A stretch of 32,624 bases of DNA from a virus (taxonomy: Duplodnaviria; Caudoviricetes), in IMG/VR virus record IMGVR_UViG_3300033692_000021, positions 1 to 32,624 of that record; one strand, 5' to 3'. The position numbers and the translations under genes are program-made. Of this stretch, positions 980 through 20,166 are shown piece after piece. Each line of letters opens with the position of its first letter. Within the stretch, counting starts at the first letter, position 1. The notes beneath the pieces were generated by a model. It did not search any database. It was given only the letters and a program-made list of their open reading frames with translations, and had not been told where the DNA came from.

Positions 980-1010
980 TAACAAGTTTAATACAAAACT
1001 ACGGCGAAAA

Positions 1011-1214: not shown

Positions 1215-1218
1215 TTAT

Positions 1219-3261: not shown

Positions 3262-3280
3262 TTTCTAAAACGATTGAACT

Positions 3281-4162
3281 ATGATGACAACAGATTTAAA
3301 AAACAGAATTGTGGCAGCTATCAAAGAGCGCCGGAACAATTACTCAAGTGATGCTAAGATGGCCGTGGCCCTTGGAATCAGCTCTTCGCAATTTTCGCGC
3401 ATTACCCGCAAGGGAGACATGGACAATGTACTGGCTGATGCGAAGTGGATATCCATTGCCCGCCGGCTTCAGGTTGAGATTAGCGGACGCAAAGAATTGG
3501 TTACGGCTAAAACACCCGTCTTTCAATTTGTGACCGGGCAGCTGGCAGCTTGTAAGAATAACTCTTTGTCGGGGTTGCTTTGTGACAGTGCCGACGTTGG
3601 TAAAACTTACGCTGCTAAGTGGTTTTGCCGCAACAATAAGAATGCTGCATACATCGACTGCTCACAGGTAAAGACAAAACAGAAGCTTATCAGGGCCATT
3701 GCCCGCGAGTTTGGCCTGGTATCTATTGGCAGATACAGCGATGTATATGATGACCTGGTCTTTTATCTACGTTCCGTGCCTGCTCCTATTGTGGTGCTTG
3801 ATGAGGCCGGTGATTTGGATTACCCTGCTTTTTTGGAGCTGAAAGCTCTCTGGAATGCCACTGAGTATGCCTGTGGCTGGTACATGATTGGTGCCGATGG
3901 GTTGCGCAAAAAAATAGACAAGAATCTTGGTAACAAGAAAGTAGGATATACCGAGATATTCAGCCGTTACGGAAGCCGCTACCAGAAGATTACTCCTGAT
4001 GGAGGAGACGAGCTGAATAAATTCAACCGTCAGCAGGTGGCAATGATTGCAAAAGCGAACAACGTCCCCAACCCTCAGCAATTGTACAGCAAAACCCAAG
4101 GCAGTTTGCGACGCATATACACTGAGATTCAGAAGTTAAACCAGCAAGCACAGGAGGCATAA
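3281..4162 (+). CDS. MuB-like transposition AAA+ ATPase
   Basis: N-terminal HTH, Walker A variant SADVGKT, Walker B VVLDEAG; adjacent to transposase. Confidence 0.85.
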   Translation: MMTTDLKNRIVAAIKERRNNYSSDAKMAVALGISSSQFSRITRKGDMDNVLADAKWISIARRLQVEISGRKELVTAKTPVFQFVTGQLAACKNNSLSGLLCDSADVGKTYAAKWFCRNNKNAAYIDCSQVKTKQKLIRAIAREFGLVSIGRYSDVYDDLVFYLRSVPAPIVVLDEAGDLDYPAFLELKALWNATEYACGWYMIGADGLRKKIDKNLGNKKVGYTEIFSRYGSRYQKITPDGGDELNKFNRQQVAMIAKANNVPNPQQLYSKTQGSLRRIYTEIQKLNQQAQEA

Positions 4163-4797
4163 TGGCAAGAGCAATTAGTGTAACAGAGCTATATAACAAA
4201 AGACGCAATGTGATGCAATTCACCGGTAAGTGGAGAGAGTCTTTTGGAGACCCTGAAAGAATAGGTTCATGGATTATATGGGGGAATTCTTTTAATGGCA
4301 AAACGAGCTGTGCCGTAATGCTTTCAAAATATCTGACGAAGTTCGGGAAGGTCTTATATAACTCACTTGAGGAAGGTGGTTCCGAAAGCATGAAGACTGC
4401 GTTTATGAACTATCAAATGCATGAAGTAAAACATAGAATAACCCTTTTAGATCAAGAGCCGATTGATGAGTTGATTGTGCGTCTGGAAAAGCATAAGAGT
4501 GCCAATATTGTAGTTACGGATAGTGTACAATATAGTGACTTATCATACCCGGCATATAAAGAACTAAGAGCCAGATTTCCAAGAAAGCTTTTTGTGTGGG
4601 TTTCGCACGCAGATGGAAAGCATCCTGAAGGCAGGGTGGCGAGAAAGATAAGGTATGATTCTTTCGTCAAGATATGGGTTGAAGGTTACAGGGCTGATGT
4701 GTTGAGCCGATATGGTGGAGGAAAGCCATTAATTATTTACCCCGACGGAGCCGCACAATACTGGGGCGATGAAATACTCGAAGGCAATGGATATTAA
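4162..4797 (+). CDS. Second P-loop ATPase (RecA/KaiC-like fold)
   Basis: Walker A GNSFNGKTS, LYNSLEEG, Walker B-like IVVTDSVQ. Confidence 0.75.
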   Translation: MARAISVTELYNKRRNVMQFTGKWRESFGDPERIGSWIIWGNSFNGKTSCAVMLSKYLTKFGKVLYNSLEEGGSESMKTAFMNYQMHEVKHRITLLDQEPIDELIVRLEKHKSANIVVTDSVQYSDLSYPAYKELRARFPRKLFVWVSHADGKHPEGRVARKIRYDSFVKIWVEGYRADVLSRYGGGKPLIIYPDGAAQYWGDEILEGNGY

Positions 4798-5212
4798 GCA
4801 AAAACGAAGAGTCGCACACGCGCTCATGTACAAGGCAGGAGCCTTGCCAAACAAGCGCGATATACTAGCCGGGTACGGTGTGGAAAGCTCAAAAGACCTT
4901 ACCGACCGCCAGATGGATGAACTAATTGAACGGTTAAAAGAAGCTGTAAGCAAGCGAAAGACAACACCTCCTGATGTAAGGCAATGGCGAAGCAACGTTA
5001 TGACAATGCTCAATAAGTGTGGTGTCTATGCCGATCAGAACGACTGGCAGCGGGTTAACAAGTTCCTGTTGGATAAGCGCATTGCCGGGAAACTTCTCTA
5101 TGAGATGACCGTGCCGGAGATGAAGGAGCTCCACCGCAAGCTGGCGAGTGTTGCCCGCAAAAAAGAAATAGAGGCAAAGAATCAATTGTATAACGGAATA
5201 GCAATGAACTAA
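4787..5212 (+). CDS. Hypothetical protein, possibly GemA (Mu gp16)-like
   Basis: SSKDLTDRQMDELIERL and LYEMTVPEMKEL motifs and early-operon position; start placed at the ATG overlapping the upstream gene end. Confidence 0.5.
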   Translation: MDIKQKRRVAHALMYKAGALPNKRDILAGYGVESSKDLTDRQMDELIERLKEAVSKRKTTPPDVRQWRSNVMTMLNKCGVYADQNDWQRVNKFLLDKRIAGKLLYEMTVPEMKELHRKLASVARKKEIEAKNQLYNGIAMN

Positions 5213-5216
5213 AACC

Positions 5217-5609
5217 ATGAAACAAAATGCAAAAGCAATGGAAGCGCGCACCGTGTGGTGCGAAAGGGCGATAACCAATATGCTCGGATTAACGCCCGAC
5301 AAGTATCTGGAACTGATGTACGAGACAGGCTGCGAGTTTGTGGAAGAGCTCTTTCGCAACGATGGATACACGGGCAAGCGCCTCAAGCGTGCAGTGAGTA
5401 AGTACATAACCAGCGACCTGTACTGGTATTACTGGATGATAGAATGGGTGGACACCTGCGAAGCATTCCTTGACTGGGATTATTCTAAAAAGTCACTTGC
5501 CGACCTGCTGGATATGCAGATGCAGGCAAAGAGGCCCTGGGATCTTCTTCACAAGAAAATCATCGAAGAGAAAGGTCACACAGTGAAAGTGGACACATTG
5601 AATTCTTAA
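5217..5609 (+). CDS. Hypothetical phage protein
   Basis: 130-aa ORF tightly packed in the early operon. Confidence 0.7.
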   Translation: MKQNAKAMEARTVWCERAITNMLGLTPDKYLELMYETGCEFVEELFRNDGYTGKRLKRAVSKYITSDLYWYYWMIEWVDTCEAFLDWDYSKKSLADLLDMQMQAKRPWDLLHKKIIEEKGHTVKVDTLNS

Positions 5610-5628
5610 CTACAATAACAGTTGCAAT

Positions 5629-5847
5629 ATGAATAACGACAGGTCAATATCTCAAGGGGCAGGAGTAGATGCAGTACTACTGGCAATATTCGTAACACTG
5701 AAGCTGACAAACCAGATCGACTGGGCATGGTTATGGGTGCTTACCCCACTGTGGGCGCCAATTGCTTTGGGTGCATTGATTGCCACGCTCTTTCTCCTGG
5801 CATTAATTATCAAAGTGTTCAGAATAGTATTAACCAAAAACAAATAG
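5629..5847 (+). CDS. Small two-helix membrane protein
   Basis: Hydrophobic, with the IFVTLKLTNQIDWAWLWVLTPLW motif common in phage membrane proteins. Confidence 0.7.
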   Translation: MNNDRSISQGAGVDAVLLAIFVTLKLTNQIDWAWLWVLTPLWAPIALGALIATLFLLALIIKVFRIVLTKNK

Positions 5848-5852
5848 TAATC

Positions 5853-6542
5853 ATGAGTGTAGATGTAAAATCTTTAAGCCCCGAAGACAGGGCAGAATTG
5901 CTGAGACAATTGCAGCAGGATCAGGAAGCCGAAAAGGCTGAGAAAAAGAAAGCCCGCGAGGATTACCGGGAGAATGTGAATAAGGTTGTTGCCAGTAACA
6001 TTAAAGACCTTCAGGTGCTGAGTAGTTTCCTGAGTCAGAAAAAGGCAGAGGTATTTAACAGCCTCAATGCACTGCTCCGCCAAAAGAAAGACCTGTTCGG
6101 GTACAAACAGGGGCAGCAGTCGCACACCTTTACTGATAAGGATGGCAACTCTGTGGTTGTAGGCTTTCGGGTTATCGACAGCTGGGACGACACCGTAGAG
6201 GCCGGAATTGCGAAGGTGAACGAATACATCGACAGCCTCAGTACGAATGAAGAAACTGCGAAGCTTGTGCGTATGCTTCAGGGCTTCCTGAAGAAAGACC
6301 AGAAAGGCAACCTGAAGCCCAGCCGTGTGCTTGAGCTGCAAAAGATGGCTAAGGATATCAATGACCCATCGCTGACAGAGGCCGTGGATATCATTAAAGA
6401 TGCCTACAAGCCTCATCGCTCGGCCTTCTTCATTGAAGCAAGCATGAAGGAAAAGAAGACCGGCAAGCAGGTAGGTATTCCATTGTCGATCACTTCCGTT
6501 GATTTCCCGGAGGGTTCTGAAATCTCAACCGACGAGATATGA
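5853..6542 (+). CDS. DUF3164-like protein of Mu-like phages
   Basis: QQSHTFT...KGNLKPSRVLEL motifs; likely start MSVDVK at 5853 after the upstream stop. Confidence 0.7.
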   Translation: MSVDVKSLSPEDRAELLRQLQQDQEAEKAEKKKAREDYRENVNKVVASNIKDLQVLSSFLSQKKAEVFNSLNALLRQKKDLFGYKQGQQSHTFTDKDGNSVVVGFRVIDSWDDTVEAGIAKVNEYIDSLSTNEETAKLVRMLQGFLKKDQKGNLKPSRVLELQKMAKDINDPSLTEAVDIIKDAYKPHRSAFFIEASMKEKKTGKQVGIPLSITSVDFPEGSEISTDEI

Positions 6543-6676
6543 TTTATGTGCTGTGGGGGTTATGGCTGCTTGTAATTGTGCTGGTGGTTCGCAATGAACG
6601 AAAGACAAAGCAACAGCCACCCCAACACCATAGATACCACCGGCATCACTATAATAAACAATTAGAAAATCATTAA
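6539..6676 (+). CDS. 45-aa membrane peptide with His-rich tail (not in the ORF track)
   Basis: MIYVLWGLWLLVIVLVVRNERKTKQQPPQHHRYHRHHYNKQLENH; ATGA overlap with upstream stop; ends 3 nt before the next ATG. Confidence 0.6.
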   Translation: MIYVLWGLWLLVIVLVVRNERKTKQQPPQHHRYHRHHYNKQLENH

Positions 6677-6679
6677 GCC

Positions 6680-7102
6680 ATGTTAAAACAAGGAGATAAT
6701 GTAATAATTGACAATCTGCCTGCCGGCAGAAAGTTACCGGAATCGCTGAAGGGCGAAGAGTGCAGCGTGATTGATATGCACAGGTATGGGTCGTCTTTTT
6801 TCTACGACATAGAGCTGCTCAGCCCGGTAGAGGGAATTGATAAGCTGCCATTGTTCAGGGGCAATCTTCTCCGGGCTGTTGCTCCCAGACCTTCCAATAA
6901 GGAGCTGCAAAAGGCAGCGCAATTGAACACGGAAGCTGAAATCAGCCAGTCGATTAACGAGCTGAAGGATGAATTAAAGGCCTGGCCGCTTCCAAGGCAG
7001 TTTGATGAAAACAGTGAGATGTATAATCGGGTGTGGGTTCGCAGAATGAGACTGCATGGCCGTATTGCCACGATGATTAAGGAGTTGGGAGGTAAGGTAT
7101 GA
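6680..7102 (+). CDS. Hypothetical phage protein
   Basis: 140-aa ORF with ATGA coupling to the next gene. Confidence 0.7.
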   Translation: MLKQGDNVIIDNLPAGRKLPESLKGEECSVIDMHRYGSSFFYDIELLSPVEGIDKLPLFRGNLLRAVAPRPSNKELQKAAQLNTEAEISQSINELKDELKAWPLPRQFDENSEMYNRVWVRRMRLHGRIATMIKELGGKV

Positions 7103-7341
7103 AAGCAATATTAAAGAGCATTGCAAGCATCTTTCAACGCAGATGTAACCGCATTTACATTCTTACAAGACACAACGGCTCAGAGAAGCTGTTCTTTCAG
7201 TTCCGTAAGGATGGAGAAGACTGCTACTCTGTTAACCGTGCCGGAGCCTGGTACTTCGACAGCCCTGAACATGCCCGTGAGGCGCGCGACTTTCTTGGAT
7301 TAAAGAATGAATTGAACATCGAATCGTTTGAACGCATCTGA
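7099..7341 (+). CDS. Hypothetical phage protein
   Basis: 80 aa, translationally coupled. Confidence 0.65.
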   Translation: MKAILKSIASIFQRRCNRIYILTRHNGSEKLFFQFRKDGEDCYSVNRAGAWYFDSPEHAREARDFLGLKNELNIESFERI

Positions 7342-7343
7342 CT

Positions 7344-7877
7344 ATGAACAATTACGAGATACAATTCACAAAAGCCCGGTTTGTCGTTAGTTACTCACGC
7401 GGCAAGCTGCGCAAGGTTGAAGTAAAAAAAGGAACCCTCGACCTTGAGTTACTGGCCGAGGTGGTGCCCGACAAAGAGGACAGTATTGAGCCTCAGGATA
7501 GATTTGTAAAGATGGAGCCAAAAGCCAAAGACCAGTTCTTTGCACCTGCCCGAAAAGCATGGATGGAGTTCTACCGCAAGCAGTCGGGCCTGGATTACCG
7601 GTTTTTGGCTGCCGATGGCAAAGCACTCAAGGAAATAGGCAAGTACATGAAAGAGGTGAGCGGTAGCGATGAGGATGCCCTGGAGGCATGGAAATTTATC
7701 CTGCAACGATGGAACCGGCTCGACCCCTTCTATCGCAAGAATGCCGACCTCAAGTTTGTAAACTCACAGTTGAATAAGATAATTAACCAATTGAAGAATG
7801 GAACAAACACCGGCCAAACAGCGTCCCGCAATACTGCCGATGATCTCCGCAGGCGCTTCTCGGGTGGAGCTGGTTAG
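7344..7877 (+). CDS. Hypothetical phage protein
   Basis: 177 aa, in operon. Confidence 0.7.
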   Translation: MNNYEIQFTKARFVVSYSRGKLRKVEVKKGTLDLELLAEVVPDKEDSIEPQDRFVKMEPKAKDQFFAPARKAWMEFYRKQSGLDYRFLAADGKALKEIGKYMKEVSGSDEDALEAWKFILQRWNRLDPFYRKNADLKFVNSQLNKIINQLKNGTNTGQTASRNTADDLRRRFSGGAG

Positions 7878-8334
7878 AGCGTTTGCCAGACTTACCCCCG
7901 CGCAGATTGTCAGGGAGAGATATCCGGCAATGTCGTGGCTCAAGCGAAGACACGGGCTTGAGAAGGTTGAGGGTGTGTTGGCAGTGTTGCTTGTTGAAGC
8001 TTCCCAGGCATTCGCCACCCAGTTTGATGAAGAAACGGCTCTGGCAATGTCTGCTGAGATACAAAGCACTTTCTATTATTATTCCCTGGAGGATTGTTAC
8101 TACGTACTTCAGCAGATGAAGAAAAGCAAACAGTACGGCACACAGCTTACAGAGAATAAGGTGCTCTCGGCATTTGCCGATTACGAAAAGGAGCGAACCC
8201 AGGCAGCCGCTGAAATGAGCTACAACGAACACCTGTCGAACAAAGAGAACCCCAACGCCCACGACCGCAATGATAGTGTATTGAAAAGCAGAATATATCC
8301 AACGCAAAGAAACCCCAATGAACGCAAGAAATAA
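7798..8334 (+). CDS. Hypothetical phage protein
   Basis: 178 aa, overlaps both neighbours, helical composition. Confidence 0.65.
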   Translation: MEQTPAKQRPAILPMISAGASRVELVRAFARLTPAQIVRERYPAMSWLKRRHGLEKVEGVLAVLLVEASQAFATQFDEETALAMSAEIQSTFYYYSLEDCYYVLQQMKKSKQYGTQLTENKVLSAFADYEKERTQAAAEMSYNEHLSNKENPNAHDRNDSVLKSRIYPTQRNPNERKK

Positions 8335-8527
8335 ATACATAACCAAAGTAATTGCCTGCCCCGACTGCAAAGGGGCGGGTGAGATACTTAAAGACCCGGG
8401 CATCAGGAGTAACACCTACGATGTTGTGGAATGCCCGTCGTGCAAAGGCACAGGTCGCCTGATAAGAAAAACAAAGGTTGAATATACACCTTACGATAAG
8501 GATGTTAAATTAATGGTAAAGATATGA
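8318..8527 (+). CDS. DnaJ-type zinc-finger small protein
   Basis: CPDCKGAG and CPSCKGTG (two CxxCxGxG). Confidence 0.75.
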   Translation: MNARNKYITKVIACPDCKGAGEILKDPGIRSNTYDVVECPSCKGTGRLIRKTKVEYTPYDKDVKLMVKI

Positions 8528-8727
8528 TGGAAAGTCCAATTTACGCACTCGCCGAGCACCTGGATGAGTTAAAGCACATCCGGGATAATTACAAGGAGAT
8601 GGCTGCTGACAGTCCTAAGTTTCTGGAATTGTTTCAGAGAAAGGTAGCTCGCCTTAATAGTCAAATCGACAGCACCGAAAGGGCAATTAATGTCCTAATT
8701 AAATTACAAAAGGAGGCAAGCCGATGA
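8524..8727 (+). CDS. Hypothetical coiled-coil protein
   Basis: 67 aa, ATGA overlaps on both sides. Confidence 0.65.
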   Translation: MMESPIYALAEHLDELKHIRDNYKEMAADSPKFLELFQRKVARLNSQIDSTERAINVLIKLQKEASR

Positions 8728-9068
8728 GAGTGTATGTATCAGGAAAAATAACCGGCCTCCCCATGGAAGCCGTTAAAGAAAAGTTCGCCTGGCACTCTTC
8801 ATTCCTCCTTGCAAAGGGATATACACCCGTGAACCCAACAGAGGTAAGTCCTTATGAGAAGGGAAAAGCGTGGCACGATTACATGAAGGAGGATATTGCA
8901 GAGCTGCTTACCTGTGATGCCATATATATGCTTCGAGACTGGGGGCAGAGCAAAGGTGCCAGGGTGGAATATCAGATAGCCAGAGAGATGGGAATGTACA
9001 TTTTCTTTGAGGGTGAATTCAATGCTGACCGTTCTTTATTTCCGCAATTAAAAACAGAGAGCTTATGA
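8724..9068 (+). CDS. DUF4406 family (nucleoside 2-deoxyribosyltransferase-like) protein
   Basis: VYVSGKITG...VNP...CDAIYMLRDWGQSKGARVE. Confidence 0.85.
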   Translation: MRVYVSGKITGLPMEAVKEKFAWHSSFLLAKGYTPVNPTEVSPYEKGKAWHDYMKEDIAELLTCDAIYMLRDWGQSKGARVEYQIAREMGMYIFFEGEFNADRSLFPQLKTESL

Positions 9069-9289
9069 GTTGTATCACATTTACCCCCAACCAGTCAGTC
9101 GAGTTAATGCCGGTACATGGCGCCACAATTACCCAGGCACTTCAGGCAACCATGGATTTGATTTCAGGTACGACACTCAAATATGCCGACCTGGTGTACG
9201 ATGGCTTTACAATGTCTGTTTACCTGGATAGCAATATCAACCAATTGGCAATGGAGTATTGGAATTGGAAAAAGCAAAGGGTAATTTGA
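9065..9289 (+). CDS. Hypothetical phage protein
   Basis: 74 aa, coupled to upstream gene. Confidence 0.6.
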   Translation: MSCITFTPNQSVELMPVHGATITQALQATMDLISGTTLKYADLVYDGFTMSVYLDSNINQLAMEYWNWKKQRVI

Positions 9290-9310
9290 ATAACAATTAA
9301 ACAGTAAATA

Positions 9311-9727
9311 ATGATGAATATCAAGAGTTTAAAAGGCAAGACAATTAAGGATGTAAAGCAAAAGAAGAAGGCAGGCTTCGATGATGAAGGCTTCCTGGTT
9401 CTTTACTTTACTGACGGATCACAGGCAACAATCGTTGCCTCTTATGGCCCCTATACAGGAGATAGTATTGATGAATACCCCTCAAAGGTATGTGTTGTAG
9501 AAAAGGTTTGTGACCTTGAAGATGTTGAACGGGCAAACTGCCCTATATGTAACGATACCGGATCTTATACAACAGGTGGTTCTTTTGGTGGTGGCGTTAC
9601 AACCCATAAATGCGACTGCCTGACCGCTCAAGAAGAACCAGTCTGCGAACACCCCTACAAGTTCGTAAAGCAAAGCCAGGATAACGAATACCCTGACTAT
9701 TGCACCAAGTGTGAAAGCTATATTTAA
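9311..9727 (+). CDS. Hypothetical protein with Cys-rich C-terminal Zn-ribbon-like motifs
   Basis: CPICNDTG...CDC and CEH...CTKC. Confidence 0.65.
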   Translation: MMNIKSLKGKTIKDVKQKKKAGFDDEGFLVLYFTDGSQATIVASYGPYTGDSIDEYPSKVCVVEKVCDLEDVERANCPICNDTGSYTTGGSFGGGVTTHKCDCLTAQEEPVCEHPYKFVKQSQDNEYPDYCTKCESYI

Positions 9728-9744
9728 CCTCAAAAAACTTACCT

Positions 9745-10038
9745 ATGGAAATGACCGATTTAGACTATTCAGGAGTCGTTAACCGAATCCAAAACAGTGA
9801 GATTGAAGGTGCTCAATTTCTCGTTGAAATAGCTTTTGAAAAAGAGGCAGTTGAAGAGGATATTAAAAGCCATGAGGAATCCTTAAATGTATTAAGAAGG
9901 ACTCATGAAAGGCTGAATGATGCCGCCCACAACGTTTTACTACACCTTGGAAAGATAACCCCACTGGCGGTTAAGCGCGATGAATTTATTGTTGTTGTGA
10001 CCAGCAATAATATCTCAATAGAACGGAATGTGCTTTAA
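9745..10038 (+). CDS. Hypothetical phage protein
   Basis: 97 aa, in operon. Confidence 0.65.
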   Translation: MEMTDLDYSGVVNRIQNSEIEGAQFLVEIAFEKEAVEEDIKSHEESLNVLRRTHERLNDAAHNVLLHLGKITPLAVKRDEFIVVVTSNNISIERNVL

Positions 10039-10148
10039 TCTATATTGTTATGTATCTGGTGGTGAGTAGCAGGGGAGTTGTAAACCCCATTGCATAGACA
10101 ATGACAAACATTGGTGAAAACAGTGCAATATGCTTCCTCACCCCTTTT

Positions 10149-10249
10149 ACATAACGGTTTGGCGGTATGGTTAGTAAAGCCGTACCACACCGCTGAATTG
10201 AAGAACTAAACAACCTTACGGCTTTATTAATTATGACCGCTTGTTAGCA
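10149..10249. repeat. attC-like site 1
   Basis: ACATAAC ... arms 10162-10184 / 10217-10240 pair with G:T wobbles and one extrahelical G ... GTTAGCA. Confidence 0.7.
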
Positions 10250-10282
10250 TTAATTTTTGAGCGGTGGAAATACACTTAAAAA

Positions 10283-10627
10283 ATGAACGAATATTTAAAA
10301 TCACAAATTGAAGAGCATTGCCAAATGGTGCAACGCGGGGCAAAGCCATTAAGCCTACTTCCGCACCAAGAAAGATATTACTATGAGATTGTAGGCATAA
10401 TTAATAAACACAAACTACACTATTCATCAGAGCTTAATGGTGAGGGTTGGCGTACAATCTACATTTATAAAAATAAAGCACTTAGATATTTAATCGCAGA
10501 AATGCCAATGAAACCAGAAACCCCGAGCGAACACGCTTTAGTTGGCTACTTGCTTGGATATAGTACGGATTCAATTTGTGATTATATATTACAACATTGC
10601 CAATTAGAAGAGCCAAACTTGATGTAG
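10283..10627 (+). CDS. Cassette-borne hypothetical protein (weak resemblance to DUF2023)
   Basis: 114 aa; fills the payload between 14-bp IRs; AT-rich; VGYLLGY...IC motif. Confidence 0.7.
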   Translation: MNEYLKSQIEEHCQMVQRGAKPLSLLPHQERYYYEIVGIINKHKLHYSSELNGEGWRTIYIYKNKALRYLIAEMPMKPETPSEHALVGYLLGYSTDSICDYILQHCQLEEPNLM

Positions 10628-10648
10628 CTGTGTGCGTTGGCAAATTAA

Positions 10649-10778
10649 TGCTAACGGTAAATTGTAAGTGCAGACAGGGATTTGGGAACACTTTCCTGTC
10701 AAATGGCACAAACAATAATTAAAGAACAAATATTTGCATACAGAACATGCCCCTGTTTGCATTTACAAAATGTTATAG
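10649..10778. repeat. attC-like site 2
   Basis: TGCTAAC ... TTGTAAGTGCAGACAGGG (10662-10679) / CCCTGTTTGCATTTACAA (10751-10768), 18 bp with 2 G:T ... GTTATAG. Confidence 0.7.
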
Positions 10779-10800
10779 GGCGTTTTTAACTGATTTTATT

Positions 10801-11016
10801 ATGAAATACGAATTTAAAAGTAGACCGAGCGGGAAGTCATTTTCGCAAATGATTCAACTAAAAATGAATATTGAAAAAGGATTAAAATGTGCAGTAGCAA
10901 CACTTAACCCAGAAAAAACAAAAAGAGACTTTGAATATATGACAGGCGCAAAACTTAATTTAGAACCGTGCGATGGCGGGAAAGATGTTTACAACGCTTC
11001 TTTAAATGCCCTATAA
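10801..11016 (+). CDS. Cassette-borne hypothetical protein
   Basis: Likely start MKYEFKSRPSGKS at 10801; TAA stop lies inside the CTATAAC box, as is common for integron cassette genes. Confidence 0.65.
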   Translation: MKYEFKSRPSGKSFSQMIQLKMNIEKGLKCAVATLNPEKTKRDFEYMTGAKLNLEPCDGGKDVYNASLNAL

Positions 11017-11286
11017 CGTAAAAGCGGTATGTTGTCGGTTGCCGACAGGTACAGGACGGACGGTAATTAACGGAATACAATTCAATAACTTAAAATAGTG
11101 AGCGGATTATGAAAAATATTGATGAAGTATACAAAGATTGGTGCGGAGAGCATCATACAACAAACAGTGGATATCCAGTACATGATAGCGCGGAAGCACA
11201 AGATTTTGCAGAGTACTATCACAAAGAAATGTTAGCGAACGAAGGTCAAAAACCAGACAGCAACTGCAATATACAGCATGTTAGCG
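11011..11286. repeat. attC-like site 3 with long coding loop
   Basis: CTATAAC ... GCGGTATGTTGTCGGTTGC (11024-11042) / GCAACTGCAATATACAGC (11260-11277) ... GTTAGCG. Confidence 0.6.
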
Positions 11287-11417
11287 GTAGTGCGGTAATG
11301 CCTGAAGGATTTAAAGTATATAAATGTACTGATTGTGGGGCGGTAAATGTTAAAAAAGATAATGGGAATGTAAGGGTCGGTTTTTGTGATGAATGCGAAC
11401 ACCCATTATGGAACTGA
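11109..11417 (+). CDS. Chimeric hypothetical protein with C-terminal Zn ribbon
   Basis: 102 aa; reads through the hairpin arm and GTT core (CNIQHVSGS); CTDC...CDEC lies in the last payload. Confidence 0.7.
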   Translation: MKNIDEVYKDWCGEHHTTNSGYPVHDSAEAQDFAEYYHKEMLANEGQKPDSNCNIQHVSGSAVMPEGFKVYKCTDCGAVNVKKDNGNVRVGFCDECEHPLWN

Positions 11418-11466
11418 TTAGCATTACCGCTAACGCCATTATAACCCCACTTCAAAAAACTGAACC

Positions 11467-11700
11467 ATGCAGAAAGCAGAATTTGAGCGACGTCTGAAAG
11501 TAAACCTTCACAAATATGTGATGCAGGTTGATGATCCCAATGAGTTTTTGGTTCAAATTATTGAACTGGCCGGGGGCTATCTCAACCTTCAGACCATAGC
11601 CGACTATGCCAGGGAAAATGGAAAGACTTACAACGGAGTGAAGAAGTGCCGGGAAGTAAGGACAATCTTTAATACCAAATTTGTGATAGACAATGAATAA
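11467..11700 (+). CDS. Small putative DNA-binding protein
   Basis: LQTIADYARENGKTYNGVKK resembles an HTH followed by a beta wing. Confidence 0.6.
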   Translation: MQKAEFERRLKVNLHKYVMQVDDPNEFLVQIIELAGGYLNLQTIADYARENGKTYNGVKKCREVRTIFNTKFVIDNE

Positions 11701-12322
11701 ACGCCACTACTACACCGAAGCCGAACGCGACTACTTACGCAAGCATTACCCGCACCGCCCCACGCCCGAAATTGCAGAAGAGCTGGGACTGACAACCAGT
11801 AGCGTATGGAATCAGGCAAATTCCCTGGGGCTGAAAAAGACAAAGGAGTGTGTTGCAGAGATGTCGCGTAAGAACATGGAAGATCCCAACCACCCGGGCC
11901 GTAAGCACCAATTTAAAAAGGGGCAACGGGTTTGGAATAAGGGAATGAAAGGCTGGCATGCCCCGGGTGTTGAGCGAACCTGGTTTAAAAAAGGTAACGA
12001 GCCACATAACACCAAACACGATGGGCACACCCGAATAAGCAAAGACGGATACATTGAAATAAGGGTGAGCAAAGGAGAGTATAAGTTTCTGCACAGGGTG
12101 GTATGGGAGCGCGAAAACGGCCCCGTGCCCGATGGTTGCATAGTGATTTTTAAGGATGGCAACCCTGTGAATGTGCGCTTGAATAACCTTAAGATGATAA
12201 CCAGGGCAGAGAACATGAAGCGCAATACTTTCCTTAATCTGCCACCTGAGTTGCAGGAGCTGTTGCAAACAAAGAGAGTATTAACCAGGATTATTAACAA
12301 TAAACTAAACGAAGATGAGTAA
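11693..12322 (+). CDS. HNH endonuclease with N-terminal HTH
   Basis: EIAEELGLTTSSVWNQA; FKKG repeats; HRVVWE...GPVPDG...FKDGNPVNVRLNNL (HNH_3-type). Confidence 0.85.
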   Translation: MNKRHYYTEAERDYLRKHYPHRPTPEIAEELGLTTSSVWNQANSLGLKKTKECVAEMSRKNMEDPNHPGRKHQFKKGQRVWNKGMKGWHAPGVERTWFKKGNEPHNTKHDGHTRISKDGYIEIRVSKGEYKFLHRVVWERENGPVPDGCIVIFKDGNPVNVRLNNLKMITRAENMKRNTFLNLPPELQELLQTKRVLTRIINNKLNEDE

Positions 12323-12632
12323 AGTAACGTTTTCCGAAGTGCGCACCGAGGCACTCGACACCATTAAGATGCTGAAAGAAGGCAGAATTGAAGTGAAGCA
12401 GGCACAGGAGATCCGCGGACTGCTGGGCACAATTATCGAAACCGCCAAAACGGAGGTTGATTTTATCAAGGTAATTCCCGATGATGTAAAACGCCAGATG
12501 AGCGAAATACAGCTGAGGGCTATTGCCCCCACGGTAGAGGATAAAGAAACCGCCCTGGACGAATCGCTGAGAACGATAGAACACAACCGCAACCACTACA
12601 CACCCGACCAGAGCGCTGCCACAGCATTGTAG
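12315..12632 (+). CDS. Hypothetical phage protein
   Basis: 105 aa overlapping the HNH gene end. Confidence 0.7.
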   Translation: MSKVTFSEVRTEALDTIKMLKEGRIEVKQAQEIRGLLGTIIETAKTEVDFIKVIPDDVKRQMSEIQLRAIAPTVEDKETALDESLRTIEHNRNHYTPDQSAATAL

Positions 12633-13548: not shown

Positions 13549-13726
13549 GTCTTACAATTCAATTCACTCAGGAGCAATCCAATCTGAGTTTATTTTTTAA
13601 CATAAAGGCACTGCCCGCATGGTGGCCAAAAGCGAAAGCTGAGGCTGGTTCTTCGCTCCGCGATTGAATTGTAAGACGCACCTAAATGGGCAGTGTTCTT
13701 GTTATAACCATTTAACGTCTTACAAT
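13549..13726 (+). ncRNA. Structured leader / c4-CI-like antisense switch
   Basis: 13663-13677 is perfectly complementary to 13549-13563 (15 bp); 13668-13678 is complementary to 13716-13726 (11 bp, overlapping the ATG); enclosed by stem CACTGCCC/GGGCAGTG. Confidence 0.6.
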
Positions 13727-14638: not shown

Positions 14639-15061
14639 CTATTCCCTAATCTTACACGTAAAGCTCACAAACGTAACCATCCAGCCTTTCCACCGGTGGT
14701 AATGCTGCCACTCCACATGCTTTAACCGTGTGGCAACCTGTGCACCCCACACAGGTACAAGTCCGTTTAAATTGTCTTTAATCTGCGTTGCAATTTCTTC
14801 GTTTTGTTGAATGGCGATATCGGGTACAGCAGTATCGTGCCGGCTTATTACCTTGCTTGTTACATGCACACGTATCAATACTTCGCCTTCGCTCAGGGTC
14901 TTGCTTATCTTATCCATCTCCAGAGGGTCGGGAAACTCCACAAATGCCACCGGGTGCGTGTGTATGGTGCCTTCGTACTGAGCATTGTACCACTGAACAT
15001 CTTCCAGTTCCGGTATCTTTTTCAGCTCTGCCTCTATTGCTTTATAAATCGGGAAATACAT
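14639..15061 (-). CDS. Putative head-tail joining / tail terminator protein (Mu gp37-like)
   Basis: 140 aa, QWYNAQY...PVAFVEF; follows the virion morphogenesis gene. Confidence 0.55.
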   Translation of the reverse strand: MYFPIYKAIEAELKKIPELEDVQWYNAQYEGTIHTHPVAFVEFPDPLEMDKISKTLSEGEVLIRVHVTSKVISRHDTAVPDIAIQQNEEIATQIKDNLNGLVPVWGAQVATRLKHVEWQHYHRWKGWMVTFVSFTCKIRE

Positions 15062-15064
15062 AGC

Positions 15065-15520
15065 TTATTTGTTTAAGATTTTGTCCATCAGTTTGTCCAC
15101 CTTCTTACCTATCATATCATCCAGCTTGCCGCTCTCGCCAATCATCTGCCGCTCGGGCATGGTAAAGCCACTGCCTCGCCCTGCCTTGCCGCCTTCGTTG
15201 TGTACTTCGGAATATGGGCGGGTGTTTTCAAAAATCACTTTGCCTGGCTTGGCCTTACTGTCCTGATCCCACGCCCGCCGCAAGTGGCCCCGGTCAACCA
15301 GTATGCTGCGGCCCTGCCTGCGCTTCTCTTTTTTGCTCTTTGGCGGCTTGCGGCTCTTCCACTTTTTCACACCCGAGCCTGTCTGGAAACCCTGCTGTGC
15401 AAAGTTGTCGCTGATGAATTGAAGTCCCTCACGCTTCACAACTCTCGGGAGATCTCTTTCAATCAGCTTTTCCATATCGCTTTGCACCTGTCGCAGCTTT
15501 GGTTGCAGTTTCTTTGCCAT
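15065..15520 (-). CDS. Phage virion morphogenesis protein (Mu gpG-like)
   Basis: ILVDRGHLRR...YSEVHNEGG...MPERQMIGES. Confidence 0.85.
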   Translation of the reverse strand: MAKKLQPKLRQVQSDMEKLIERDLPRVVKREGLQFISDNFAQQGFQTGSGVKKWKSRKPPKSKKEKRRQGRSILVDRGHLRRAWDQDSKAKPGKVIFENTRPYSEVHNEGGKAGRGSGFTMPERQMIGESGKLDDMIGKKVDKLMDKILNK

Positions 15521-15521
15521 A

Positions 15522-16448
15522 TCATATCAGTTTTATTGAGTCAAATACCAGCGTTCCCTGCACACTTTCAAAGGCTTTAATCACAAAGTTGATGCCTGCA
15601 TCGGTGCCTGTCCAGGTGTGAATATTGCCACTCACGGAGTGTACACCTGCTTTTATCAGCTGTTGCACGTTCTCGCTGTTGTGAAGCAATGCCAGGGCTT
15701 TGGTTCCTTTCTCGGCTGCGTTAATCTTTGCAGTTCTTTCGATGCCCGATTTTTCGAAGCTTACCTTCAGCTTACCACTTCGCACGAAGCGGTTACGGAG
15801 TTCGGTATGTGCCTGGCGAATCATCACATCTTTAATCAGCTCATCGGCCATGCCTTTTACCTGGTTGGCTTCGGTTACCGGCACATCGTAATAACCTGCA
15901 CTGTCGCTGAAGAGCTTACCTGTTTTGCCGGGGTTGTGGTCAAATCCGCTGCCCGGTTCCACGTCGGTGGTGCCTTTGGCAGGCTTATCGGTTTGCACCA
16001 CATCACATCGGCAACCCCAGTCAAGTGGCGGGTAGTGCCCATCCCAAAACGGATCATCAATGGGGCGAATGGTGCCGTTGAGTTTTGCATGACTGCTCCT
16101 GGTCTGGCTGTCCATTACGGCCACATACTCAAGATTGGGGTATAAGTCCTGGTCGGCTTTAAACCCGTTCCACTTCTTTGCCATCTCTGCCGAGCTCAGT
16201 GCCTGGTTGTGTTCTGTTGTCAGCCAGTTCTTGTTGTACTTCTCGGCTATTGGACCGGCAGCCTGCTTGAACTTACTGAACGATCGTACCTCGCCGTTTT
16301 CGTCAACCAGCAATGATACCAGTTCTTTCTGCTCCTGGTGGTTCTTGAATGCGGCAAATACCCCGGCGTTGTGAGTAAGCTGTTCGTTCAATGCCCAATC
16401 GCGGCTGTTGTAGGTAGTACTTACCAGACTGCCCATTTTTTCCGACAC
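15522..16448 (-). CDS. Mu gpF-like minor head protein; frame extends upstream past 16595
   Basis: YPNLEYVAVMDSQTRSSHAKLNG...DDPFW..HYPPLDWGCRC. Confidence 0.9.
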   Translation of the reverse strand: MSEKMGSLVSTTYNSRDWALNEQLTHNAGVFAAFKNHQEQKELVSLLVDENGEVRSFSKFKQAAGPIAEKYNKNWLTTEHNQALSSAEMAKKWNGFKADQDLYPNLEYVAVMDSQTRSSHAKLNGTIRPIDDPFWDGHYPPLDWGCRCDVVQTDKPAKGTTDVEPGSGFDHNPGKTGKLFSDSAGYYDVPVTEANQVKGMADELIKDVMIRQAHTELRNRFVRSGKLKVSFEKSGIERTAKINAAEKGTKALALLHNSENVQQLIKAGVHSVSGNIHTWTGTDAGINFVIKAFESVQGTLVFDSIKLI

Positions 16449-16544
16449 CGCTCCGGCCAGTTCCCGGTAGTTGCGTTCCCATATCTCCCGGTCAATTCCT
16501 TCCTGTCCCTGGTGTATGCGTTTCAGATACCCGCTGAATTCATC

Positions 16545-16595
16545 GCCGTTCTCACTTACCAGGGTAAGTCCTGTGAGACGGCTCTGCGCTTTTTT
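16545..16595 (-). promoter_or_regulatory. Programmed -1 ribosomal frameshift signal (portal to gpF)
   Basis: A_AAA_AAG in the portal frame (16595-16589), 6-nt spacer, GCCGT...ACGGC stem-loop; the -1 frame is the gpF frame. Confidence 0.75.
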
Positions 16596-17731
16596 ACAGG
16601 GCCGCGCGCCTGTGGTTGACCGGGCTGTGCCGGTGGCTCCGGTTCCTTCGGGTCGGGTGCCGGCTTGCGCTCCAGGTCGGTGAATTTAATCTTACACCCA
16701 TCGAGCGAATAACCGTGATATACCAGGAAAGGAATCAGCTTGTTGTTGACCACGTTGGTGCAACGTCTCAGCCTTGCCGCATGGAAGTCGTTGAGAATGC
16801 GCTCATGCACTTCGGCACTTCCTACAAAAGACTTCTCATCACTTGAGCCTGTCTGCCCGTTGATGCACTTCGATATCTGCTCATCGCAATACTGGGAGTT
16901 CTCCAGATAGATTTTGTAAAAATCGGTGTTCTGAGCCTGCTTAATCTCAATCTCATCGTCATGGTCGGTAATTACATAACCATTGGCGGCGAAGTTGGCG
17001 GCCATGCTTTCAATGCGATCAAGCTCTGCTTTATCGGTAGTGTCTGTCTTGATGCTCAGGTATGGCATTCCGTACTTTTCAGATGCCTGCGACCAATCGC
17101 TCCTTGCAAAGTTTTTCCAGATAACCTCACGGGCTATCAGTTCAAGACTGCCCAGCTTTTCGGCACTGCCCAGCTCTATGAAAAAGAAGTCTTCGGGCTT
17201 GAGGGTTCCCTCCTCATTGCTGTAAGGGATGTTGTTGCCGGGCGCATCGCTGTCGAAGCAGATAGCCTTTTTAAACGGCAATACGTTGCGGCGTGGGAAT
17301 GTAATCATATCAACGAACTCTCCCTCATCGTTAATGTCGCCAGCCTCCACAAGGGTATAACCCCACATCTCGCTGTCCAGGACAATGCTCAAAAACTTTT
17401 CGAACCACTCACGGCGCAGCAGTTCTGTTGCCTGCTCGTCTTCGCTGCCGTTGCGGGTAAGCACAAAAGGGCTGCTTGTTACTTTATTCCTGGCAATCTC
17501 CAGCTGAGCATGAACATGACTATCGCGCACAGAATTCTCATAGATGCCAATCAGGTCTATGCGGTCAGGGTTATCGGCATCCAGTGCATTCTCAATTGCC
17601 TGGCGGAGTGTTTTCATCTCCATTTTAATCCGGTCGGGGCTCTTCTTCTGTGCCTTCCGGCTGTGGCGTGTACCCTTTTCTGGGGTATTGTCCTGGGCTT
17701 TGAAGCCCTTCAATAAGTTGCTTAATTTCAT
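16556..17731 (-). CDS. Portal protein (DUF935 / Mu gp29-like)
   Basis: DSHVHAQLE...W...EKYGMP...CDEQISK.INGQT...SAEVHE. Confidence 0.9.
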   Translation of the reverse strand: MKLSNLLKGFKAQDNTPEKGTRHSRKAQKKSPDRIKMEMKTLRQAIENALDADNPDRIDLIGIYENSVRDSHVHAQLEIARNKVTSSPFVLTRNGSEDEQATELLRREWFEKFLSIVLDSEMWGYTLVEAGDINDEGEFVDMITFPRRNVLPFKKAICFDSDAPGNNIPYSNEEGTLKPEDFFFIELGSAEKLGSLELIAREVIWKNFARSDWSQASEKYGMPYLSIKTDTTDKAELDRIESMAANFAANGYVITDHDDEIEIKQAQNTDFYKIYLENSQYCDEQISKCINGQTGSSDEKSFVGSAEVHERILNDFHAARLRRCTNVVNNKLIPFLVYHGYSLDGCKIKFTDLERKPAPDPKEPEPPAQPGQPQARGPVKKRRAVSQDLPW

Positions 17732-18156
17732 GAGAAGTAAGGATTATGTGTTCGTGGATTGTTACTGCCCATTCGTATAGATGTGGCTGTCTCGCCATCG
17801 GCAGTAGTGTTTCTTTGCAGGCTGCATCCGTAACGTCCGCCAGCTATCTTATCAAGTTCCTTCAGGGTGTCGTCGTAATCTTTTATTACCCGTTCGGGAA
17901 TCTCTTCGTCGGGCACCCGTGCATATATGTAATAGAGTGAAAGGCTAATCATCCAGCGCATGAGACTCCTGTCTCTTTCGTCTCCTGTAAAGGCCAGTTC
18001 GGCCTGCACGTTGTACTTATCGCTCAGGCGGTCGGTAATGAGTGCGCCTGCATCTTTTTCGGCATCGTTCAACAGCTCATCATCGCCACCTGTAATCTGG
18101 TCAATGATGGATGTGGAAACCCGCGTTGCGTAATCTTCCTTCAGAATAAAGTCCAT
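17728..18156 (-). CDS. DUF1320 / Mu gp36-like head-tail adaptor
   Basis: Start MDFILKEDY (18156); IPERVIKDYDDTLKELDKIAGG; lies between terminase and portal. Confidence 0.8.
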   Translation of the reverse strand: MDFILKEDYATRVSTSIIDQITGGDDELLNDAEKDAGALITDRLSDKYNVQAELAFTGDERDRSLMRWMISLSLYYIYARVPDEEIPERVIKDYDDTLKELDKIAGGRYGCSLQRNTTADGETATSIRMGSNNPRTHNPYFS

Positions 18157-18157
18157 A

Positions 18158-19726: not shown

Positions 19727-20166
19727 ATCATCTTGCGTTTTTCGTTCAGGTAGGCTTCAATGAATTCCACCAGTTCCTGAGCCAATTCAAGATTCTCAGC
19801 TTTCAGCCATTGCGAAAACTCCCTCAGCACTTTAATCATGGCACTCCATTCCAGTTCCTTTGCCTTCACTGTAGTGAATAGCTTTTGCAGAGCATCAATA
19901 TCTCCTTTGCTTATGAGCTTTGTGGCACCCTCTTTCTGGTACTCATCCTTAATGTTCTTGAGAGCAGTCAGCTGGTAGTTTATCAATTCCCACACTCCCT
20001 CTTCGGCAGTCTGCTTTTCAATAAGCGTTCGGCTCTTCTGCATCTCCCAGTTATCGTCCTGCTTCCATTTACAGATTGTCTTTTCAGACCTGCGCAGGGT
20101 TCGGGCAATTTCTTTTTGTGCCCAGCCGTCGGTGTACAGAATGCGTGCGGCATCTCTTTCCTTCAT
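19723..20166 (-). CDS. Terminase small subunit (N-terminal HTH)
   Basis: QKEIARTLRRSEKTICKWKQDDNW; coupled to terL. Confidence 0.8.
   Translation of the reverse strand: MKERDAARILYTDGWAQKEIARTLRRSEKTICKWKQDDNWEMQKSRTLIEKQTAEEGVWELINYQLTALKNIKDEYQKEGATKLISKGDIDALQKLFTTVKAKELEWSAMIKVLREFSQWLKAENLELAQELVEFIEAYLNEKRKMI

Follow-up and report, generated by a model that had tools for sequence, protein, structure and literature searches.

Is the short array of inverted repeats and hairpins in the early region of a Mu-like phage a working locus for shuffling accessory genes, and if so, which enzyme serves it? The array lies in a viral record of 32,624 nt, which was analyzed over its whole length and is referred to here as the window. 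The initial annotation described it as an integrase-less, integron-like cassette array with non-canonical sites, embedded in a Mu-like prophage. Profile searches of the record support the Mu-like assignment, with matches for the MuA transposase, the MuB ATPase, GemA (below the cut-off) and the Mu-type portal, gpF and gp36 head genes (phrog_310, phrog_296, Portal_Mu, Phage_Mu_F and Phage_Mu_Gp36). No host flank was identified, so the term prophage is not supported and we refer to a phage, the host of which likely belongs to the Bacteroidota. MuA is the only recombination enzyme recognized in the record; as the initial annotation had it, a tyrosine recombinase is not found, given that a search of the whole record in six frames with PF00589 produced no match, but the record is 51% complete (CheckV), so a recombinase could sit outside the sequenced part. 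An Rfam search returned nothing meaningful (one irrelevant match, E = 1).

Recomputation recovered all four GTT...AAC box pairs reported for the array. The pair at 10047/10155 has 8 perfect matches and the pair at 10243/10655 has 14, whereas those at 10772/11017 and 11280/11434 each have 10 perfect matches, or 14 with one mismatch. Pairs with at least 13 of 14 matches occur in the 32.6 kb only as the three long ones; dinucleotide shuffles of positions 10000-11500 (n = 1000) contained no such pair in 992 cases and one in 8, and shuffles of the whole window (n = 100) contained none in 92 cases, one in 7 and two in 1. Each AAC box is complementary to the GTT box across its own payload, and the RYYYAAC and GTTRRRY boxes with their complementary cassette ends are those of integron attC sites. 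All three imperfect hairpins, each running from AAC to GTT, are present as well and pass the threshold of 24 on an arm-pairing score of our own; among 200 shuffles scored for hairpins, 197 had no site and 3 had one. Judged solely by folding energy, the first two hairpins are weak (z = -1.9 and -1.8, + strand). The three hairpins have little sequence in common (one 19-nt match at 74%), and no shared repeat of the PeSL type was found across them. Elsewhere, L009-L012 and 12 viral loci combine the hairpin 1 family with other payloads, and the arms of hairpin 3 enclose a different loop, with a different payload, in L177.

Table. Coordinates of the cassette array, its docking end and its left flank in the window (dot, no strand assigned).
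Feature	Positions	Strand	Remarks
97-aa gene (phrog_37199)	9745..10038	+	fixed left flank of array
Payload 1, non-coding, fixed remnant with GTT..AAC ends	10047..10155	+	identical in L001, L002, L003
att-like hairpin 1, 93 nt	10153..10245	+ (bottom-strand reading)	exchange at own AAC
Cassette A, 500 bp (hairpin 1 + payload 2)	10155..10654	+	exact 500-bp skip in run X2; missing from L002
Cassette A gene, 114 aa	10283..10627	+	
att-like hairpin 2, 122 nt	10653..10774	+	
Cassette B, 362 bp (hairpin 2 + payload 3)	10655..11016	+	
att-like hairpin 3, 268 nt	11015..11282	+	start of cassette C gene in loop
Cassette C, 417 bp (hairpin 3 + payload 4)	11017..11433	+	exact 417-bp skip in X2 and X3
attI-like docking site (AAC core + 16 nt, no hairpin)	11432..11450	+	
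Dyad 1 (TTCA-N6-TGAA type)	11451..11464	.	15-16 nt from AAC, just 5' of start codon
77-aa gene	11467..11700	+	sits where recombinase gene lies elsewhere
Dyad 2, inside 77-aa gene (codons V-Q-I-I-E)	11552..11565	.	101 bp from dyad 1

The array is genuine and it moves: single cassettes are exchanged within it. The sister phage L002, with flanks 96-99% identical to those of the window, carries five other cassettes (463, 570, 384, 231 and 353 bp; cassettes 1 to 5) between the same two AAC junctions. Contigs of three further samples from a single study (runs X2-X4) lack single cassettes or place them beside new neighbors, producing seven junctions that are absent from the window: payload 1 to cassette B, B to the docking site, 5 to B, payload 1 to 5, payload 1 to 1, 3 to the docking site and 5 to the docking site. 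All seven are located at AAC boxes and none at GTT boxes, so the crossover initially placed at the + strand G/TT is rejected; the two sides of each junction have 4-7 bases in common, the stretch to which the cut can be narrowed. At least eight cassettes circulate at this one locus. Several joints have short contig sides (24-30 nt), and the junctions come from contigs of one study, the campaign of which the IMG/VR sisters may share. Two contigs, one of 465 nt from X2 (depth 200) and one of 751 nt from X3 (depth 92), hold whole cassettes across junctions, and loose contig ends match cassettes assembled separately in L002. No back-joint of an excised circle appeared in four contig sets, where contigs drop rare forms. 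Of the initial interpretation, which holds in part, the integron-like, integrase-less shuffling locus with non-canonical sites is supported, and L002 and X2-X4 now demonstrate the exchange.

Because all junctions fall at the + strand AAC, the + strand corresponds to the 'bottom' strand of attC, and the cassette consists of a hairpin together with the payload downstream of it, bounded at AAC. The four units originally counted come down to three cassettes: payload 1, which alone folds into a strong stem (z = -4.9), is identical in the sisters and unmoved in sister contigs and runs, and the hairpin scan found no att hairpin upstream of it, so it is rejected for now as a mobile cassette. Runs X2/X3 place cassette B in three settings: behind payload 1, behind cassette 5 of the sister and immediately next to the docking site. 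The 97-aa gene to the left may itself be a decayed older cassette, since a homolog of it (45% identical) is a cassette payload in another phage (L181-L184). Pfam, PHROG and NCBIfam searches assigned no function to the three window cassette genes. The gene of cassette A matched only the DUF2023 profile, below the cut-off, and has a 58% identical homolog that is an ordinary phage gene outside cassettes. The cassette B ORF (10747-11016, with an alternative in-frame ATG at 10801) has its stop codon within the closing TAAC, and that of cassette C (11109-11417) crosses the GTT box. In integrons, a gene is followed by its own attC; here, the gene is inverted relative to this polarity in 56 of 57 classified viral cassettes but in 0 of 30 chromosomal ones, all 30 of which are canonical. 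Among the 56 inverted viral cassettes, 26 have an ORF that crosses the GTT box, and none has one that crosses the AAC box.

Far from being peculiar to this phage, the site family is found in numerous phages and also in chromosomes of Bacteroidota. Exchange at the bottom-strand AAC, seen at all new junctions, agrees with attC, which is cut within that triplet (PMC5027507). The AAC-first strand folds better in 81/91 viral and 40/49 chromosomal sites, and in hairpins 1 and 2 the bottom-strand reading is favored by 1.8 and 1.6 kcal/mol. The near-equal R and L spacers of attC are not seen: pairing of the arms is offset by 2-4 in 86/89 scored viral and 43/49 chromosomal sites, and at these offsets it exceeds that of shuffled partners (60 shuffles; related sites included), whereas the published aadA7 and TJE1_attC1 sites have an offset of 0-1 by our hand reading of Table S3 of PMC9892861. 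Nor do most of the sites carry the two or three extrahelical bases opposite AAC (G16 and a conserved T) that are central to strand choice in attC. Hairpin 1 has one additional G in its right arm, and a right-arm bulge was called in 13/91 viral and 4/49 chromosomal sites by an aligner that may under-call bulges. With the extrahelical bases mostly missing, a folded single-strand mechanism is less certain here than for IntI.

The array extends farther than initially proposed: its assigned right boundary stops short of a docking end that comprises an attI-like site, two dyads and a 77-aa gene. The docking site at 11432 is fixed, with cassettes C, B, 3 and 5 each adjoining its AAC in the window, the sister or the runs. 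It is thus a hairpin-free recombining site at one end of the array, as attI is in integrons, and it resembles the chromosomal sites beside recombinases. The site is coupled to the dyads and the 77-aa gene, its AAC, dyad 1 and the gene occurring together in 58 of 66 phage loci; background matches to dyad 1 numbered 3 in 1.18 Mb. Dyad 2 is conserved at the codon level, with Ile encoded by ATT in 56/56 cases, compared with 16/36 and 22/45 at two other conserved Ile positions. At period 10.5, the spacing of the two dyads in 51 loci yields a resultant of 0.66 (0.51 across the distinct spacings), and 0 of 5000 permutations reached it; related loci and a peak at 103-104 inflate this signal, so helical phasing is suggestive only.

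The modeled 77-aa protein consists of two helices followed by a predicted winged helix-turn-helix (pLDDT 92.5). Foldseek returned no match at E <= 0.001 and Atlas leads were under 0.9; Pfam and NCBIfam searches gave no match, and the only PHROG match was weak and to an unannotated family. The gene was not found in 401 sampled Bacteroidota genomes (its own record was found as the positive control), and we accordingly rejected it as part of the chromosomal system; tblastn found no match in a sample of 50,697 GenBank phage records. Nor was it found in the 20 viral loci identified by pattern, the sister excepted. Many phage arrays end without this gene, which is therefore not required.

The initial annotation invoked an IntI-like recombinase acting in trans. 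Service in trans is likely, but IntI proper does not fit, as the candidate enzyme lacks the IntI-specific insertion. This candidate is a recombinase family present in 111 of 301 Bacteroidota genomes. Among 40 fetched loci, 15 have a cassette linked to a site at most 300 nt from the gene and 25 have no direct link; in 11 of the 15 linked loci, array and recombinase gene share a strand, with the array on the 3' side. In score, the 15 chromosomal sites are close to the docking site of the phage (median -0.1 versus a background of -9.2); 7 of them exceed the 95th percentile and 8 fall below it, and of 136 hairpin arms, 0 exceed it. Family member P0149 lacks the IntI-specific insertion (I2 domain; PMC4792948, PMC4889954), with 27 residues spanning what takes 69 in VchIntIA (2a3v), and TIGR02249 matched all eight members scanned in two pieces, below the cut-off. 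One phage, L032, encodes a 276-aa recombinase in place of the 77-aa gene. A viral scan with this enzyme retrieved only itself, and it forms a long branch that cannot be placed in the recombinase tree (n = 37), in which seven short or upstream-type enzymes form one weakly supported group. PF00589 had no match in five other phages with the platform, four of them at least 90% complete. By association, the enzyme likely belongs to the Bacteroidota family without the IntI insertion.

We consider it likely, with good confidence, that the locus is a working gene-cassette array in which integron-type exchange occurs at AAC, probably catalyzed in trans by a recombinase without the IntI insertion from the host or a co-infecting phage. 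By analogy with attC, the + strand would fold as single-stranded DNA and be cut between A and C of AAC, by an enzyme of the Bacteroidota family that lies beside these sites in chromosomes as well as in one phage. New cassettes would enter at the docking site, the promoter-distal end, and their genes are presumably inverted because they are read by the rightward early transcription of the phage instead of an integron Pc. The 77-aa protein would bind the two dyads and repress its own gene, and it may loop the DNA, assisting or gating recombination at the docking site.

It is quite conceivable, although we lean the other way, that the 77-aa gene and its dyads constitute a self-regulating module that merely ends the array and has no part in recombination. 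Dyad 1 lies 1-5 nt 5' of the start codon, like an operator, arrays without the gene exist, and the dyad is rare at chromosomal recombinase loci (3/40, within 300 nt upstream or 200 nt downstream). Self-regulation alone, however, fits poorly with an AAC-dyad distance held at 15-16 nt in 58/66 loci with unrelated downstream genes, with hairpins lying upstream in 36/40 loci but downstream in 6/58, and with the four cassettes that adjoin the docking AAC in sister phages, which indicate that the site itself recombines. We regard it as unlikely that the dyads instead serve the recombinase as accessory sites comparable to DR1/DR2 of attI1: their occurrence follows that of the 77-aa gene (of the strict copies, 104 lie within the module and 16 elsewhere in 589 kb), and they are largely missing from chromosomal recombinase loci, even though the half-site starts with GTT or GTG as the core box does, a similar word occurs in L boxes of published attC (hand reading of PMC9892861, Table S3) and the constant distance from the core is compatible with such a role.

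If the locus were an ordinary CALIN on which a canonical IntI of the host or another element acted, this would account for the R boxes, the G.T pair beside the box and the attC-like bottom-strand bias, and IntI1 recombined five of six phage-borne sites (PMC9892861). This is nonetheless improbable in light of the arm offset and the scarcity of right-arm bulges described above; moreover, the single IntI1 failure was P12002L_attC1 (n = 1, assigned to the present family by our analysis), and IntegronFinder 2.0 lists a single complete integron for Bacteroidetes proper. We find it still harder to accept an exchange of modules through homologous or illegitimate recombination between repeats, with the hairpins functioning in RNA. 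The mRNA strand is the one that folds better, start codons often lie inside hairpins, and PeSL shuffling offers a phage precedent (PMC2839356, as far as its available text goes), but the dissimilar window hairpins and the few bases common to each junction, all at AAC, speak against it, as do the chromosomal genes that have the same sites behind them in the other polarity and the cassette-specific complementary ends, which need a circular or folded intermediate. Finally, we give hardly any credence to the idea that MuA, the sole recombination enzyme recognized, moves the units or that the junctions, some of which rest on short contig sides, are assembly artefacts: the platform recurs in phages with unrelated gene contexts, and the deep X2 and X3 contigs and the separately assembled L002 cassettes contradict it.

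Beyond the cassette array with an enzyme in trans, we tentatively entertain a bolder proposal, which may well prove wrong: Bacteroidota phages might run a minimal integron of their own, in which a movable ~270-bp docking unit, made up of an attI core, two dyads in helical phase and an excisionase-like 77-aa protein, recruits an I2-less host recombinase and draws on a phage-only pool of back-to-front cassettes derived from ordinary phage genes, the enzyme and its bulge-poor sites representing the missing intermediate between Xer recombinases and IntI.

These findings reveal a phage population reshuffling accessory genes cassette by cassette at defined sites. DNA methyltransferases are encoded by 7 of 57 viral cassette ORFs, so the arrays could provide a fast route to anti-restriction functions. 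Surveys have reported almost no integrons in Bacteroidetes and dismissed recombinases without the IntI insertion (PMC4889954, bioRxiv 2022.02.28.482270); the standard tool may therefore miss a widespread system. The origin of the I2 domain and attC has been posed as a chicken-and-egg problem solvable by intermediates (PMC4792948), and an I2-less enzyme acting on bulge-poor hairpins makes this question testable. For a recombination assay, the docking module supplies a substrate that is short and well delimited, along with a candidate accessory protein.

In a literature search, the phage CALINs of Qi et al. 2023 (PMC9892861) were the only match to this system; PMC13616975 and PMC8618304 contained nothing of relevance. 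In the available passages, they are integrase-less arrays of att-like sites in phages, often with DNA methyltransferases, and P12002L_attC1 of Polaribacter phage P12002L has the geometry of the present family; P12002L_attC2, by our own reading of that material, is not a hairpin of this family but the reverse complement of the array-end stretch. Those passages treat the sites as canonical attC and mention neither a separate recombinase nor inverted genes, a docking module or exchange among sisters. The position of the array 3' of the recombinase gene in linked chromosomal loci recalls the Treponema-group integrons with an inverted integrase (PMC4889954), but there the integrase is turned, whereas in the present system it is the cassette genes that run opposite to their own att site, and the candidate enzyme lacks an intI_Cterm-type insertion. 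The 77-aa protein is weakly excisionase-like or MerR-like, judging from its model: residues 39-77 align with Pukovnik Xis (Z 3.0, rmsd 1.9, 39 aligned), BldC (Z 2.7, rmsd 2.1, 39 aligned) and RdfS (Z 3.5, rmsd 5.9, 53 aligned), scores of 2.7-3.5 that equal the background level, and, unlike excisionases, it has two additional N-terminal helices and putative sites that are dyads. The PeSL cassettes of T4-type phages likewise shuffle accessory genes at stem-loops in a variable region, but these are promoter-terminator elements that recombine with each other (PMC2839356, available text), whereas the present sites differ in sequence, exchange at a fixed AAC and have a polar docking site.

The closest parallel is the integron itself, in its class 1 and sedentary chromosomal forms, and the array works like one without being canonical. 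Common to both are self-complementary cassette ends, bottom-strand AAC exchange, hairpin sites of variable length and a hairpin-free docking site at one end, toward which the sites have the same polarity. No intI lies beside the array in this half-complete record, and the candidate enzyme lacks ~42 residues spanning the IntI insertion. A Pc promoter at the docking site could not read the cassette genes, as they point toward that site; the Bacteroidota -7 motif was found on the + strand only at ~7500 within 300-12500. One spacer is 2-4 nt longer than the other, extrahelical bases are mostly missing, and the phage genes are inverted, often starting within the hairpin. At the position of the integrase, this system has a small winged-helix-like gene and two dyads.

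The initial annotation located its four GTT...AAC pairs and three hairpins correctly, although two of the repeats it measured at 14 bp carry one mismatch. No pairs in the window other than the three long ones reach 13/14 matches; among 1000 shuffles of the region, 992 contained no long pair and none contained more than one, and 197 of 200 shuffles lacked any hairpin-like site. Gene matches bear out the identification of a Mu-like phage, and the report of no tyrosine recombinase holds for the linear IMG/VR record, all of which the window covers; rated 51% complete by CheckV, it gave no PF00589 match in six frames in a search that matched all 14 control genomes.

Features of the cassette array and its docking end (positions on the + strand of the window)
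Feature	Position	Strand	Remark
Payload 1	10047-10155		Fixed remnant left of the cassettes
Hairpin 1	10153-10245
Cassette A	10155-10654		Hairpin plus payload behind it, 500 bp
Hairpin 2	10653-10774
Cassette B	10655-11016		Hairpin plus payload behind it, 362 bp
Hairpin 3	11015-11282
Cassette C	11017-11433		Hairpin plus payload behind it, 417 bp
Docking site	11432-11450		attI-like
Dyad 1	11451-11464
77-aa gene	11467-11700	+	146 homologs found
Dyad 2	11552-11565		Inside the 77-aa gene

Payload 1 is non-coding, with strong folding of either strand (z -4.9 and -4.3) and ends complementary over about 25 bp. Possible identities include a collapsed site, a non-coding cassette and a terminator-like element. 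An AAC..GTT hairpin at 13599-13703 (score 22), ahead of a KilA-N gene, has no linked cassette and carries the opposite strand signature; it is perhaps a terminator. Head and terminase genes (14639-20166) are encoded on the - strand, whereas the early and tail genes run the other way.

The array is real and mobile. In L002, a sister locus of the same phage (flank identity 96.0-99.3%), payload 1 is kept and followed by five unrelated cassettes (463, 570, 384, 231 and 353 bp), after which the window sequence resumes at 11432, with both junctions at AAC. We also compared contigs from four sequencing runs of one study (X1-X4; the window possibly comes from X1) with positions 9300-12400. One joint in X2 omits exactly 500 bp, corresponding to cassette A (depth 91), and another, present in X2 and X3 (depth 200 and 92), omits exactly 417 bp, corresponding to cassette C; a further X2 joint, from 10156 to 10653 (496 bp), also ends at AAC boxes but has a sequence gap between its sides and was excluded from the deletion count. 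Of 11 loose contig ends, seven coincide with array junctions and, compared by eye, agree with L002 cassette 1, 3 or 5; another three sit at 12397, beyond the array, and the last, from X1, resembles a library adapter. A 751-nt contig in X3 has the order cassette 5, cassette B, docking site. Altogether, the run contigs contain seven junctions that the window lacks; every one is at AAC, and the GTT boxes have none. This evidence comes from one study and from contigs rather than reads, some sides spanning only 24-30 nt; the cut position is confined to the 4-7 bases shared at each junction. These junctions refute the earlier proposal of a crossover at + strand G/TT, and exchange almost certainly takes place at AAC. 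The expected gain and loss of units at fixed sites among related phages was seen in both L002 and the run contigs. Outside the array, at about 8720, the window is shorter by about 180 bases than sisters L001-L003 (L002:2783-2961), and X2-X4 depart from the window at 12397 (a 142-nt loose end), with a variant HNH gene segment at 12135-12145.

In integrons, cleavage takes place on the folded bottom strand, within AAC and between its A and C (PMC5027507). The window + strand acts as such a bottom strand, with G.T pairs, better folding and junctions at its own AAC, and because it behaves as the cut strand, a cassette consists of a hairpin first and a gene second. We parsed linked cassettes in the window and the viral loci (L002, L008, L014-L017, L019-L032 and L035-L097; L001, L003-L006, L018, L033 and L034 repeat counted contigs and were dropped, and L007 was not included) and, likewise, in 40 chromosomal loci. 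Among 72 viral cassettes, 57 were classifiable and 56 of these have the gene inverted; all 30 classifiable cassettes among 37 chromosomal ones have canonical orientation. In 26 of the 56 inverted cassettes the gene runs across the GTT box, but in no case across the AAC box, which is what exclusive breakage at AAC would predict.

Cassette C is one such case, its ORF beginning within the hairpin 3 loop. Locus L177 repeats the arms of hairpin 3 and the linker peptide, but its start and end differ. Outside any cassette, ordinary genes in L175 and L176 are homologous to the cassette A gene and to the cassette C tail. Sequence comparison thus suggests that cassettes may be built by putting phage genes behind reusable hairpins. 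The 57 viral cassette ORFs include seven DNA methyltransferases and one each of RtcB, ASCH/DUF3850 and DUF7768; the other 47 have no Pfam match. An RtcB RNA ligase gene forms a phage cassette at L050:289-1656. Arrays of the window's type also occur on 2-4 kb contigs in Methanolobus (L010), Omnitrophota (L011) and Treponemataceae (L013) MAGs, inverted in 3/3 classifiable cases; these are most likely mis-binned phage fragments.

At the docking end, an alignment of 50 homologs of the 77-aa gene, used as query, yielded 65 viral loci, in which the genes 3' of it are unrelated. Counting the window, 58 of 66 loci have YAAC, 15-16 nt and a dyad ahead of the gene, a pattern occurring three times in the remaining 1.18 Mb of sequence; two of the eight exceptions are truncated and the others differ at one or two bases or have no AAC. 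Upstream hairpins are present at 36 of the 40 loci where the sequence extends far enough; downstream, they occur at 6 of 58. Because the dyad half-sites vary independently, protein binding on double-stranded DNA probably fits better than a stem. Codons in dyad 2 are constrained beyond the protein sequence: across 58 homologs, Ile is ATT in 56/56, Gln CAA in 51/51, Glu GAA in 57/58 and Val GTT or GTG in 55/56, against 16/36 and 22/45 (Ile ATT) and 14/48 and 33/50 (Val GTT or GTG) at control conserved positions. Spacing between the dyads (51 loci) clusters at 79-80, 90-95, 101-105 and 109-113 bp, about one helical turn apart by a statistic that ignores relatedness of loci. A one-mismatch dyad copy occurs at 11081-11094, in the hairpin 3 loop and 15 nt ahead of the start codon of cassette C; in AT-rich DNA it may have arisen by chance.

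The 77-aa protein has a confident predicted fold of two helices and a winged helix-turn-helix-like unit, with likeness to Xis, RdfS and BldC at background level only; a role in recombination is a tentative suggestion. The gene was not found in 401 sampled Bacteroidota genomes and is dispensable for arrays, as other phage arrays end in other genes. A second small helix-turn-helix-like family, of 58 aa, takes its place right after the array end (L182:2334-2560; also L181, L183 and L184).

A motif search of 97 loci returned a single tyrosine recombinase. It is encoded in L032, a phage locus, about 75 nt past the last cassette's AAC, the position of the 77-aa gene in the window. Its homologs bear PF13495 and PF00589; in 8/8 scanned, the XerA model scored highest and the integron-integrase model matched in two pieces, below cut-off. 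The family occurs in 111 of 301 sampled Bacteroidota genomes. Among 40 chromosomal loci, taken from the top of the list of family matches and chosen for long contigs, there are 15 in which a hairpin-free site no more than 300 nt from the recombinase gene (11 downstream, 4 upstream) is linked to a cassette, and L163, L173 and L174 show the classical divergent layout. These 15 sites resemble the phage docking site (median score -0.1 versus -9.2 for background), with seven above the 95th percentile of the background (7540 YAAC sites), a level exceeded by 0/136 hairpin arms. Five other phages with the docking platform (four at least 90% complete) lack a tyrosine recombinase. The simplest reading, and a likely one, resting on association, is a recombinase supplied in trans by this Bacteroidota family, which lacks the IntI-specific insertion I2. 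This corrects the earlier suggestion of an in-trans IntI-like enzyme in that the candidate is not an IntI proper, one member lacking about 42 residues relative to VchIntIA. We infer a Bacteroidota host, because the few named 77-aa homologs come from Bacteroidales and Flavobacteriales records and the hairpin-site family resides in Bacteroidota chromosomes. Chromosomal docking sites often sit between inverted repeats of their own, locus-specific in sequence, as just past the recombinase stop codon in L135, L147, L151, L152 and L153; these repeats may be terminators or accessory sites. In a chromosomal array of L174 (1689-1921, 3609-3793), there are two identical hairpins, and behind each lies an empty payload of 36 bp whose ends match perfectly over 12 bp.

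PMC9892861 reports 17 phage CALINs (att clusters without an integrase), including that of Polaribacter phage P12002L, whose attC1 was the only one of six tested sites not recombined by IntI1; by our assignment, attC1 has the geometry of the window's site family. By our comparison with the genome record, P12002L attC2 corresponds, reverse-complemented, to the array-end stretch. The P12002L genome has two copies of this stretch of about 70 bp, terminating two separate arrays (L178, about 29160 and 37000), and its cassette genes are likewise inverted. This cultured phage with a known host offers a ready experimental model. PMC4889954 judges recombinases near attC without intI_Cterm not to be IntI, and IntegronFinder 2.0 names one complete integron in Bacteroidetes proper. 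A literature search, with subscription papers mostly outside its scope, turned up no account of a Bacteroidota system lacking I2, of inverted phage cassettes or of the docking module.

Viral and chromosomal sites resemble attC in R boxes, strand bias and exchange point. Arm pairing is offset by 2-4 in 86/89 scored viral and 43/49 chromosomal sites, with a right-arm bulge in only 13/91 and 4/49; in two published attC sites (PMC9892861 Table S3, read by hand) the offset is 0-1 and a G is bulged. Since I2 accommodates attC bulges (PMC4792948), bulge loss in the sites matches I2 loss in the enzyme. A folded single-strand route is reasonably probable. The array works like an integron but differs from a canonical one in integrase, extrahelical bases, spacer symmetry, the cassette promoter Pc and gene orientation.
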